From assembly GCA_951406725.2 (NCBI GenBank), contig OX597823.1, positions 43,276,001 to 43,340,000 on the forward strand: a stretch of 64,000 nt of DNA, given 5' to 3'. Source of the stretch: Octopus vulgaris (Eukaryota). Below, in pieces: positions 6,820 through 25,100 of the stretch. Made by a program: the position numbers and the translations under genes. The stretch's first letter is position 1. Each line of letters starts with the position of its first letter. Below the pieces are notes generated by a model, which worked only from the letters and a program-made list of their open reading frames with translations, was not told where the DNA came from and made no database searches.

Positions 6820-7217
6820 CAGTTCCCCACGTTGAGTAAGGACTTTAATGGCACTCCGTCGGTTACGACGACGAGTGTTCTAGTTGATCCGATCAACGGA
6901 ACAGCCTGCTCGTACAATTAACGTGGCTGTGCACTCCACAGATACGTGTACCATTAAAGTAGTTCTCGGGGAGATTCAGCCTGACACAGATTCTGACAAG
7001 GCTGTCCCTTTGAAATACAGGTACAACAGAAAAAAAGAGTGAGAGAAAGTTGTGGTGAAAGAGTACACTAGGGTTCGCCACCACCCTATGTCGGAGCCTC
7101 GTGGAGCTTTAGGGATTTTCGCTCAATAAACACTCACAACGCCCGGTCTGGGAATCGAAACCACGATCCTAAGACCGCGAGTCCGCTGCCCTAACTACTG
7201 GTCCATTGCGCCTCCAC
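6820..7217 (-). mobile_element. tRNA-Arg(TCG)-headed CORE SINE (octopus OR-type)
   Basis: Minus strand GGAGGCGCAATGGACCAGTAGTTAGGGCAGCGGACTCGCGGTC...GGTTTCGATTCC followed by CORE-like GCGTTGTGAGTGTTTATTGAGCGAAA. Confidence 0.85.
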
Positions 7218-19685: not shown

Positions 19686-19961
19686 ATTTATCGTGTCGTT
19701 TTTATAACATATTTTAACTGCTATAAGGCTATTAACTTTGATACACAGTATGCTGTGTTTTGTTAATTGTTTAATGACCTATCCCACTTTGTATGATTAG
19801 GGCTTTTCCATTTAGTACACCATCTGTTTGGTTTGTGTGCTTTCACTTAACTAATAATCAAGACCATGATTAAGTGTGTGGTTAAGAAGGTCGCTTTGAT
19901 TTCAGTTTCAGTCCCACTGTACCGCATACTGGGTAATTGAATTTCGTAGACTGAAAGCCCG

Positions 19962-20018
<57 letters not shown>

Positions 20019-20217
20019 TAACCACACACTTAATCATGGTCTTGATTATTAGTTAAGTGAAAGCACACAAACCAAACACAAGGTGTACTAAATAGAAAAG
20101 CCCTAATCATACAAAGCGGGATAGGTCATTAAACAATTAGCAAAACACAGCATACTGTGTATCAAAGTTAATAGCAATATAGCAGTTAAAATATGTTACA
20201 AAAACAACGCGATAAAT
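19686..20217. repeat. 200-bp inverted repeat around a (TA)n-containing spacer
   Basis: Arms 19686-19885 and 20018-20217 are reverse complements with scattered mismatches (above 90% identity by eye). Confidence 0.92.
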
Positions 20218-20651
20218 GACGCCACCCCGCTGGCTAAGCGAGCAGGCCAAAAGAGTGGGAGAAAGATTGGTGAAAGAGTACAGCAGGGATCACCACTCCC
20301 TGCCGGAGTCTCGTGGGGGCTTTTAGGTGTGTTCGCTCAATAAACACACACAACGCCCGGTCTAGTGATTAGGGCAGCGGACTCGCGGTCGCAGGATCGC
20401 GGTATCGATTCCCAGACCGGGCGTTGTGTGTGTTTATTGAGCGAAAACACCTAAAAGCTCCACGAGACTCCGGCAGGGGGTGGTGATCCCTGCTGTACTC
20501 TTTCACCACTCTTTCTACCACTCTTTCTTCTGTTGGCCTGCTCGCTTAGCCAGCGGGGTGGCGTCATTCGAAGGATAAAACAATGCGAACGCATTGTGAC
20601 CAGCGATGTGTAACAACATCTGATGGTCTGGTTGGTCACGTGATCACGTGA

Positions 20652-21698: not shown

Positions 21699-22778
21699 TA
21701 TGTCTTTAGGTTCAAATTCTCTCAACCGTGCGATTACCCACTGCAGCCCCAGTGTGACCTTCAGCTGCAGTTCTATAGGGAATCAAAGTAACTCTTTATA
21801 AAACAGGTAATCCTCTCTAACTTTTCACTAGCTATGTCGTGAATCCCGCTTTCCTGACAACTTCGTTGCATACATGATGGGGAAGAGAAAATGAATCCAG
21901 GAGCGTTGAACAAGCACAGAAAATTAGCGGTGAGTTTATACTTTTAACACGGCTTAACTATAGTCGTTCATAGTGCAATGAATTAACAATGGATAGACAG
22001 ACTGGGAAAACAGCAATGAAAGAAGGAAGAGAAAAGGGAGTTAGGAATAATTTAGAAGAATGGTTCGATGCGTTGATGCATTAATAATAAGTGATACATT
22101 TTAAGCTCCGTTAACAGTAACATCGGCTTATTTATATAATTATATTTACTGTCACGGCTAATTTCTGGAACAGGGAGACGCCTGAAGTTATGAAGCACAC
22201 TCAATGTAAATTTATTGCTCAAATGCATATGTATATGTGTGTGTGTGCGCACTCATGTTTTATGTGTGTGTGTATGTGTGTGTACGATTTCTTAAATTTT
22301 AAAGTATTTGAAATTTTCCTGAAGGGAAGAAATTATTTTCTAACATATAGAAAGCTCTATCGCTGGAATGTATATCGCAAAAACAACGACGTATTTTGAA
22401 GTAGAGGTAAAACTTGCATATATTTACAGTTCTTGTTACAGACCGTATCTGTAGTATACGAGATAGCTGCGGGATCGTTACATTTTTCTTTCCTAAAGAC
22501 CCCTTTTGAGGATAACAACACTGTACGACCGGGGGTCGTACAGTGCCAGATGACGACATCGGAATACAACAATATCTGTCAGAGCGACAACTCGTACTAA
22601 GACAGACACAACAGTGGCAAAGACTGCTTTATAACAGTTGCGACGAGGATAAACCAACTAGAAGAGGGGCTAATAAACACACGAAGTTGGTGTACGAATT
22701 TTACGTAAAACCCTATAATTATGGAAAATTTACATTATTTACATTTGTCGGATATTTGTCCTTATCTTGTTTGTTGTT

Positions 22779-22824
22779 AACACAACGTTTCGGCTGATAT
22801 ACCTTCCAGCCTTCATCAGGTGTC
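22779..22824 (-). ncRNA. Minimal type-I hammerhead ribozyme motif (Penelope pLTR)
   Basis: GACAC-CUGAUGA-A-GGCUG..CAGCC-GAAAC-GUU-GUGUU. Confidence 0.75.
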
Positions 22825-22871
22825 TTGTGGAAATTTCGAACCTGCATTCTCATTCCTGAGGTACTTTTCGA

Positions 22872-22908
<37 letters not shown>

Positions 22909-22910
22909 CA

Positions 22911-22983
22911 GGTCACTGCCTGAAATCACACTTGGAATCTTGGCGTTAGTAGCCCGCGCTCTTAACCACTACGATATATGCCC
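22911..22983 (-). other. tRNA-derived segment inside the Penelope 3' region
   Basis: GGGCATATATCGTAGTGGTTAAGAGCGCGGG-CTACTAA-CGCCAAGATTCCAAGTGTGATTTCAGGCAGTGACC: A-box-like start, anticodon loop CT-ACT-AA, decayed B box. Confidence 0.6.
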
Positions 22984-23717
22984 GTGGGCAATTATGGAGT
23001 GAATTTTAGGGTTTATAAATCTAATATTTTTCTATCCTTCCTTAATACCGGTTCCCATATGCTAGTCATATTTGCACTCGGTCTGCTTAGGAGGTTGTTC
23101 TCTCCTAGCATATGTGCTGCTTCTTTTAGCTTTCGTATTTTCCAGTAGTGTTCTCTGTCTATTATTTTAACTTCATCCCACAAGGGGAGGTGGTCTCCAT
23201 TTTTCTATAGATGATCAGCTATACCCGATTTATCAATATCTCCTCGTGACACAGCTTTGCGATGTTCGTATACCCTTATTTTGAAAGGGTGGCATGTTTC
23301 GCCTTTGCATAACCTACCACAGCTGCATGGGATGGAGTACATGCAGTCTTTGGTCATTTTGTCTTCTATTGGTGGTTTACTCGAAGGAGATATTTGCGAA
23401 GTGTAGTATTGCTCTTGATGTCATATGGGCCGTATATCTTTTGCATCTTTTCGGAGAGGTCTTTCACATAGGCTAGACAGACTGTGGGCCGTTTATTGGT
23501 TTCATCCTCTCTTTTCTTCATAATTGGAGTGGAGAGTATGTTTTGGGGGGTAATTGTTGCTTAATAGATTGTTATTGAACTTGATCATTTCTTCGTTGTG
23601 TGTATCACGATCGCTACTTATATTCTTTGCTCGATGTTTTAGGCACTGAGCAATAAAAATAATAATAACATCGAAAAATACCTTAGGAATGAGAAACCAA
23701 ATACGAAATTTCTCCAA

Positions 23718-23763
23718 GACACCTGATGAAGGCTGAAGGATATATTAGCCGAAACGTTGTGTT
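23718..23763 (+). ncRNA. Minimal type-I hammerhead ribozyme motif (inverted pLTR copy)
   Basis: GACAC-CUGAUGA-A-GGCUGA..UUAGCC-GAAAC-GUU-GUGUU. Confidence 0.75.
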
Positions 23764-24029
23764 AACAACAAACAATATGAGGACAAATACCCGACAAGTA
23801 CATTATGTAAATAACGTACCTAATTCCTCATCTCTTAAATATAGAACTGTATTATGGAAAATGTGTTTGTTGGAGTTGCAAAAGCAGCAACAACAACAAC
23901 AACTGTAAGAACAACAGCAGCAGATACAACTGCAAGAGCAACAACAGAAGCAACAGCACTTAATATTACTTCAATAAATGTTGCAATTACTGTAGTAACC
24001 AGAAAATTCAGAAAAGGTATTCTCGCAAG

Positions 24030-25100
24030 ACTATGTTCTGAATTCAATAACAGAATTCAAATACGATCGTGACAAAGGTGGTACCTTCGAATCATACTAC
24101 AGAAGATATAAGCAAATCTTCGAGGAATAATGTAAAGATTGGGACGACGAGTTGAAAACTCGCTTAATCTTGAGAATACTGGCTCCAACAGAACATGAAT
24201 GATACAGTAAAGTTTAATGACACAATATCTAGTGTAAGATTTTCAGTGAAAAAAGCTCCTTGTTCAACACACGGTAGAAGTGTTTGAACATAGAGAAAAA
24301 TAGTAATGAGCACTATATTACATATGCTGGTTGAGTAAACAGGGAATGGGAGAAGTTTGAGCTGGAGGAATTAACACCAGATATATTCACATGCCTGATA
24401 TTTACACAGGGACTAACCGTCGGAAATGACGCAGAAGGCAGAACGAGAATTCTTGCAAAGCTGGAACAAAGCTTGGATGTAACCTTGCAAAAAGTGTCTC
24501 AAGAATGTGAAAGGATACTTAATTAAGACACGACACAAAGGAAATTAAGCGTAAAGATTGTTTCCAAGTAAAACCAGTGCAGAATAGTCTGAATAGAAAT
24601 AACGAGTTTGCTAAAAAAATACGACAAACATTAGTATTTAAACCCATGCTTTGCATGTGGTGATATGCACCTGAGAGAAAGTGTCCATTTAAAAAGTGGG
24701 GTGTTTTCTTTGTGGAAATATGAGATATATAAAGTTGCACAGCAGGACGAAGAGGATAAACGTCAGAACAATGAGAAAAAAAGGGAATAGTTTGTCATCG
24801 GAAAAAATGGGTAATACAATGAACAGACAATTTGTAAATGTGAAAATTAACAATAAAATTGTAAAACTGAAGTTCGACACAGGTAGCGACATAACTATTT
24901 TAAATGGAAAAGCGTGGAAATATGTCTATAAGCCGAAATTAATTAAATCTAAAAAGACGATATTGTATCGGTGAATGCACATTGTAACGTAAAATATCGA
25001 GGTCAATCGGAAAAAGGCTGAGGTATATGTATTAAAACATTCACTTAATATATTTAGCTCAGAGTGGATACAACTATTTCATTTATGGCAAAAACACCCA
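24030..25100 (+). mobile_element. Degraded Ty3/Gypsy gag-protease fragment
   Basis: ...FKYDRDKGGTFESYYRRYKQIFEE*CKDWDDELKTRLILR...FTCLIFTQGL...RTRILAKLEQ...; protease RQFVNVKINNKIVKLKFDTGSDITIL (DTG motif). Confidence 0.85.

Follow-up and report, generated by a model that had tools for sequence, protein, structure and literature searches.

The locus studied here lies in the genome of Octopus vulgaris, where a decayed GIY-YIG reading frame is followed by a tRNA-like segment, a microsatellite and a hammerhead-bearing terminal repeat (pLTR). This arrangement raises the question of what kind of repeat it is and which polymerase would read it. The earlier note had proposed a short Pol III-driven repeat, either a SINE or a retrozyme-like system, that depends on the reverse transcriptase (RT) of Penelope-like elements (PLEs). 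The locus turned out to be a damaged member of a high-copy Penelope-type family that codes for protein and the terminal repeat of which opens with a tRNA-derived piece. Our preferred reading is that this piece is a Pol III promoter that probably starts the element's own RNA. A bolder version, which is tentative and to which we would give a probability of roughly 0.4, is that an autonomous coding element captured a tRNA-type promoter and is read by Pol III from end to end, with a 2.5-kb ORF purged of terminators, an uncapped RNA that would be translated and solo copies that arise as by-products of internal priming.

Structure of the insertion

The window, i.e. the whole stretch of DNA that was analysed, comprises 64,000 nt of contig OX597823.1, and the parts of the insertion within it are listed in Table 1. 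The co-oriented order described in the earlier note, with the GIY-YIG stop followed by a tRNA-like head with an ACT loop, (CAA)n and the hammerhead pLTR, is present in full on the minus strand, where 29 nt separate the end of the ORF stop at 23013 from the beginning of the head at 22983. The remnant of the ORF is 88.5% identical to a longer copy (L011), and the ATG within the pLTR is the one that opens the ORF in tandem copies. The pLTR ends at 22729, in one of the clusters of 3' ends of the family (240-259, see below). The hammerhead consists of the CUGAUGA core (22819-22813), the GAAA-CGUU segment (22791-22784) and stem I (22824-22820 with 22783-22779), all on the minus strand. Its stem III is palindromic, its stem II forms in fold predictions of the monomer, and cleavage is predicted after 22784. 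The inverted second pLTR with its tail and the 11-nt direct repeat, both in Table 1, had gone unmentioned in the earlier note. An empty-site joint for the locus was not among the joints listed.

Table 1. Features of the insertion and their positions in the window
Feature	Position	Strand	Remarks
11-nt direct repeat, left copy	22719..22729	+	likely target-site duplication
pLTR without tail	22729..22873	-	carries the hammerhead and an ATG at 22853-22851
Minimal type I hammerhead	22779..22824	-	motif in sequence
(CAA)11 microsatellite	22874..22906	-	sequence
tRNA-derived head	22907..22983	-	A box 22976-22966, ACT loop 22952-22946, B box 22932-22922
12-nt near-palindrome at the 5' edge of the head	22979..22990	-	inferred start (~ -6) falls inside
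TATA-like hexamer over the ORF stop codon	23012..23017	-	~25-30 nt upstream of the inferred start; putative function
3' end of PLE ORF (thumb and GIY-YIG region), 5'-truncated, with stops and frameshifts	23013..23654	-	
Inverted 5'-truncated pLTR	23652..23851	+	hammerhead 23723-23758, 30-nt Penelope tail 23822-23851
11-nt direct repeat, right copy	23852-23862	+	same 11-mer as the left copy; the pair brackets the whole insertion

Other repeats were observed in the surroundings. A decayed frame that adjoins the insertion (23927-24900, plus strand) contains zinc-knuckle-like and aspartic-protease-like motifs as well as many stops and is probably the remnant of an LTR retrotransposon. A distinct tRNA-headed SINE-like repeat occurs at three sites of the window (21705-21531 on the minus strand, 20268-20509 and 7049-7206), and a 200-nt, 95% inverted repeat about an (AT)n core at 19686-20217 is possibly a MITE-like element.

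An abundant coding family

Walking upstream from family copies led to the RT and to full-length copies. The column majority of 29 aligned copies contains one open frame of 835 codons (a CDS of 2,505 nt), which opens at the pLTR ATG upstream of the hammerhead, reads through the hammerhead and stops 29 nt before the next head. The unit is thus head-(AAT)n-pLTR-ORF, in partial tandem. The translated frame matches RVT_1 (E=7e-7) and has 314 relatives at E<=0.001, one of which (P0004, 51% identity) possesses a similar hammerhead-encoded peptide near its N terminus. The Pfam match to GIY-YIG is weak (E=0.23 in P0004), and the motif was recognised by visual inspection of the translated frame. Partial-tandem pLTRs, an inverted 5' copy and an optional tail were all found in the family. 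Judged by its sequence, the family is an EN+ Penelope-like element of the C-terminal GIY-YIG type.

The tRNA segment is a fixed part of this family and not a one-off insertion. It follows the ORF in all ten RT-selected loci that reach the ORF end (19 loci were examined besides the query), and it is also found before the 5' pLTR, alone in L165 and in tandem in L155 and L162. From seven loci in 80 arbitrarily placed 10-kb stretches, one of the seven being a weak old fragment, we estimate ~24,500 loci per genome of 2.8 Gb (95% range 9,900-50,500). The junction, head and pLTR queries yielded at least 2,111, at least 449 and at least 3,339 candidates, respectively. All copies examined are decayed, with a non-CpG divergence of 4-6.5% in the pLTR, and target-site duplications of 8 nt or longer flank only 3 of 16 solo copies, compared with 2% in shuffled pairings. 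The family densely covers contigs of four runs, of unspecified library type, filed under four other organism codes, and one record among those listed bridges the ORF end and the head. Many copies among L153-L180 retain no more than the first 300-560 nt past the 5' pLTR and then jump to the 3' part or to a pLTR, which suggests frequent template jumps.

The tRNA-derived head

Aligned to 30 genomic tRNAs, among which there was no Ser tRNA, the head reached z values of up to 7.4 against shuffles, with Arg-TCG and Ala-TGC as the best partners. ARAGORN made no tRNA call in the window and none in 140 head copies at default stringency (3/140 at 90%), and Rfam gave neither a tRNA nor a hammerhead match at E<=10. 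By sequence the head is tRNA-derived, but its cloverleaf fold is lost and it is not a functional tRNA gene.

A check of the consensus boxes had also been proposed. In the family majority, the A and the B box are intact and match what we take to be the type-2 consensus. In the head copy of the window both are decayed; this had been noticed for the B box, while the A box, which departs from the family majority at two positions, had been overlooked. Among 106 arms of single copies the A box passes in 71 and the B box in 43, the losses being mostly due to CpG decay.

The (CAA)n tract is confined to a part of the family, which in most copies carries a variable-length (AAT)n instead. We could rule out (CAA)n as a target site, since it is internal to the unit and its length varies across the family. 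Other repeats are present inside the (AAT)n tract of L033, L051, L069, L078, L081 and L082. By eye they resemble the end of what we presume to be an R4/Dong-type element, for which the tract would then be a secondary target.

Where copies start

Among the 55 arms that reach head position +10, 50 end between -15 and +10, where 20% would be expected from the truncation rate inside the head (nominal p 2e-29, the arms not being independent). They belong to 84 arms that reached the 3' part of the head and that came from head-free queries and from random stretches, two per locus and picked by similarity ranking. The commonest ends are +1, +4 and -6, and four ends at -14 are probably due to an alignment slip into an inverted head. 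Upstream, in the ORF, the truncation rate is only ~0.002 per nt. In the random sample, four of the five head-bearing loci start at the head. The secondary arms of all loci, ORF-selected ones included, show a weaker peak (13 of 46 at risk), and 16 of these 46 extend into the ORF up to the scaffold end. Moreover, the sequence immediately preceding the head of solos corresponds to the end of the ORF, not to unrelated flanks. The remaining five of the 55 arms continue across the head, which shows that there were longer RNAs as well.

Taken together, template RNAs very probably began at the head. RNase P-type processing at +1 was ruled out, since the fold is lost and 17 of the 50 ends lie at -15 to -6. 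That most copies reaching the head start there is likely because Pol III begins the RNA of the element at this point.

Where copies end

On a 3'-end scale of 295 nt, with the predicted cut at 191, the ends of 311 arms were placed. Six of them fall at 186-196, compared with 97 at 240-259 and 107 at 280-295; 51 arms break at the microsatellite, and most ends are found 50-100 nt past the cut site. The template spanned an uncut hammerhead, and an RNA ending at the ribozyme was not the template. This contradicts the proposal that a self-cleaved RNA ending at the GUU site is copied, and head-to-tail units bounded by cut sites, as implied by a retrozyme-like system, are not the pattern of the family.

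In inverted pairs, a tail was found on exactly one arm in 28 of 38 cases (18.8 expected, p=0.002). It has been shown that the RT of PAc starts at two internal sites in the early ORF, requires RNA up to +172 and uses uncut RNA (PMC11167929), and a minimal hammerhead with a palindromic stem III was reported to cut only as a dimer (PMC4209133). The two clusters of 3' ends and the tail on one arm match the internal priming of PAc.

Two further observations concern the ribozyme. The CUGANGA core has a single free position and the two subfamilies differ there, a pattern to be expected if the master copies were under constraint to keep the ribozyme. In addition, L501 (1389-2352; G000:C24 near 27.709 Mb) is a headless head-to-tail array of four to five units of ~250 nt, each composed of the pLTR and the first ~70 nt of the ORF side, and represents a retrozyme-like tandem derived from this Penelope family.

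Solo copies

Solo copies made of head and pLTR without GIY-YIG exist, as had been anticipated, and they are the majority of head-bearing copies. Their existence does not imply a SINE lineage. There are two linked subfamilies, and solo, long and ORF-leader-bearing copies occur in both, in a split of 43:8 for solo and 26:9 for long copies (Fisher p=0.28); the split was made with three hand-picked sites, and a threshold-based comparison gave no diagnostic columns. A solo-only subfamily was not found in either of two samples (75 solo with 57 long arms, and 39 with 67), although a small lineage could be missed in samples of this size. Two of 28 variable columns differ between solo and long copies at p<0.05 uncorrected, one of them being the variant carried by the head query. 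The mixture in both subfamilies speaks against the Penelope-dependent SINE lineage of the earlier note.

Three copies, L165, L476 and L493, start at head positions +1, +4 and +4 and extend 346, 838 and 166 nt into the ORF side. They belong to the seven copies scored as head-keeping among 51 pLTR-to-ORF junction copies; three others have their first base within the head, and the seventh is a read-through from an ORF further upstream, for which L155 provides a second case. The copies that start at the head and extend into the ORF indicate that head-started RNAs ran into the ORF. Of the complete solos, 24/39 carry the tail and 15/39 lack it. A better account of the solos than an independent SINE lineage is that they are copied from the 5' leader of the element itself. 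A back-joint in RNA reads that would match a small circle was not among the joints listed, from libraries not made for small circles.

Which polymerase reads the element

On the coding strand of the majority CDS there is not a single run of four or more T. Synonymous shuffling predicts 2.9 such runs (P=0.027), and a calibration on 30 other PLE ORFs predicts 6.1 (P about 0.002). The control ORFs show no deficit, with 184 T4 runs observed and 176 expected; all eight near-full-length controls carry 4-19 runs, and three short controls have none. The controls were taken from other organisms (of 80 loci, the 30 in which the RT frame spans 350 codons or more were kept and 50 were dropped), because a search of the same genome for a headless PLE family with a distant PLE protein returned the same family at all 30 loci kept of 74 matches. 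Runs of four or more G are absent from the CDS as well (expected 1.0-2.5, P=0.29-0.09, not significant), and base composition may therefore account for some of the T4 deficit. Nine single copies contain 0-5 T4 runs each, a noise that is masked by the majority sequence.

The distance of the start at the head is typical of type-2 Pol III genes. Together with the boxes and the lack of T runs, this suggests that the tRNA-derived Pol III promoter probably starts the element's own RNA. RNA-seq data were uninformative and bear neither for nor against Pol III: three unstranded runs from one study, the species label of which may not be that of the host, showed no start or end peak, and 73-77% of the aligned reads continue into unlike sequence. 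In rotifer PLEs, which are without tRNA heads, the 5' end of the pLTR is likewise fixed and palindromic, and a putative TATA/Inr promoter has been described (PMC3846280). The peak of 5' ends hence marks a start site and does not name the polymerase.

Proposed mechanism and alternatives

In the reading we prefer, Pol III would start at about -6 of the head in tandem or full-length masters, meet no T4 terminator, cross the uncut hammerhead and enter the ORF. The family's RT would then prime internally on the uncut element RNA. Priming at the first junction would give SINE-like solos of ~250-300 nt, as copies of the 5' leader, and priming at the next junction would give ORF-bearing copies, including that of the window. 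Translation would begin at the first ATG, after a two-codon upstream frame. That the same Pol III RNA also serves as the translated message is the least certain step.

A capped RNA would be easier to translate, and it may be that the start site is real but used by Pol II, with the TATA-like motif at the ORF stop setting it and the tRNA piece as passenger or helper. The hexamer does lie 25-30 nt upstream of the 5'-end peak, the Penelope element of D. virilis has an internal, LINE-like promoter (PMC2377424), and pLTRs of A. vaga have a putative TATA/Inr (PMC3846280). We nevertheless regard transcription by Pol II as unlikely. It leaves unexplained the intact A and B boxes in an unfolded head, the T4 deficit and a start at what we take as the type-2 Pol III distance; moreover, the family majority, with G at the sixth position of the hexamer, is a weak TATA match. 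Still less probable is a promoter-free origin of the peak, in which stalling of the RT or fold-back of the new cDNA at the palindrome of the head edge interrupts the copying of a long RNA. Some junctions are indeed palindromes centred at the head edge (e.g. L038, L051, L053, L059 and L063), and such junctions dominate the loose-end consensus in RNA reads. However, the 51 head-start arms are of several kinds: 21 lack a neighbouring arm of the family (four of them being inverted arms fused to mid-ORF), 14 are joined to a shorter inverted partner, one to a longer partner and only 15 to another head-start arm; with such mixed junction types, fold-back at a local palindrome cannot account for most of them. 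The longer stem II of the hammerhead gives no comparable peak, and a stall at a tRNA fold would place ends 3' of it, whereas this fold is lost. We therefore consider this explanation very improbable.

The remaining alternative keeps Pol III but assigns it to a separate RNA of ~250-300 nt, transcribed from 3' heads or solos and amplified as a Penelope-dependent SINE or retrozyme. Solos are, after all, most of the head-bearing copies, a short RNA might be initiated from the 3' head of any long copy and terminate in a neighbouring run of T, mobilisation of other sequences in trans by pLTRs is known (PMC3846280), and the tailless solos could derive from such an RNA. Yet the 3' ends do not stop at the ribozyme, a solo-only subfamily was not found in the samples above, and what precedes the solos is sequence of the ORF end. 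In addition, most complete solos are tailed, and by analogy the PAc rule would require ORF sequence beyond the tail in their template. This alternative appears improbable to us, and we favour transcription of the whole element by Pol III from the head.

Significance

The transcription mode of PLEs is known for very few families. If the Pol III reading is true, a coding retroelement would depend on a polymerase that is normally tied to short non-coding RNAs, at a visible sequence cost (no T4 across ~2.9 kb), and would provide a naturally occurring case in which to test whether a Pol III transcript is translated without a cap. Irrespective of the polymerase, the copies provide a genome-scale fossil check on the internal priming seen in vitro for PAc, with two 3'-end clusters, the tail on one arm and an uncut hammerhead. 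They also show one route to SINE-like repeats, namely from the leader of an autonomous element itself. For genome annotation, there is a risk that tens of thousands of solos are wrongly entered as SINEs or tRNA pseudogenes.

Comparison with known systems

With tRNA-derived SINEs, the solos share the A/B-box head, the lost fold, a 3' part common with an autonomous partner and a copy number of tens of thousands. They are set apart, by comparison of descriptions, in that the head is on the autonomous element itself, the termini are those of a Penelope element and our samples contained no short lineage of independent standing. Octopus reportedly has the tRNA-derived SINEs OK, OR1 and OR2, said to have been described by Ohshima and Okada in 1994. 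OR2 has been cited as a CORE SINE (PMC4758252), and a 2026 repeat annotation of octopus counts 190 Penelope-like families, in the part available to us without detail on promoter heads (PMC13282606).

The octopus family resembles canonical EN+ PLEs such as PAc/Poseidon of anole in the features described for them (PMC11167929, PMC8557442, PMC3846280): a single ORF of ~835 aa with RT and GIY-YIG, the start of which lies within the pLTR so that it overlaps the hammerhead, an arrangement in partial tandems, an inverted 5' pLTR, an optional tail of 30-40 nt on one arm, two RT start sites and AT-rich targets. A 300-aa piece of the octopus ORF is 38% identical to an 836-aa Anolis protein (P0057). Unlike these elements as they are described there, the octopus pLTR opens with an A/B-box head and a microsatellite, and its unit is free of T4 runs. 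A pair of A and B boxes was found downstream of 0/30 control PLE ORFs (up to 700 nt downstream; six had less than 200 nt). Full-text literature searches, judged by titles, abstracts and selected passages, turned up no paper that describes a PLE with a tRNA head on its pLTR, with Repbase, Dfam, SINEBase and subscription journals outside this search.

Non-coding type I hammerhead repeats related to PLE pLTRs are also the basis of the metazoan non-LTR retrozymes (bioRxiv 10.64898/2026.07.22.740005, PMC7761336). These are described as head-to-tail tandems that give circular RNAs, whereas the octopus solos are dispersed and single or head-to-head. In the main text of the preprint (bioRxiv 10.64898/2026.07.22.740005), the words 'tRNA', 'pol III' and 'promoter' are absent.

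The nearest precedent for a promoter combined with a hammerhead is the schistosome repeat Sm-alpha/Sj-alpha (PMC6765202), in which a Pol III promoter is followed by a hammerhead within a retroposed repeat, the same order as in octopus, where Pol III is inferred. According to its description, the schistosome repeat is non-coding, tandem and self-cleaving in vitro (PMC6765202). In octopus, on the other hand, the module serves as terminal repeat to an element that encodes a protein, its hammerhead is minimal and its copies span the cut site.
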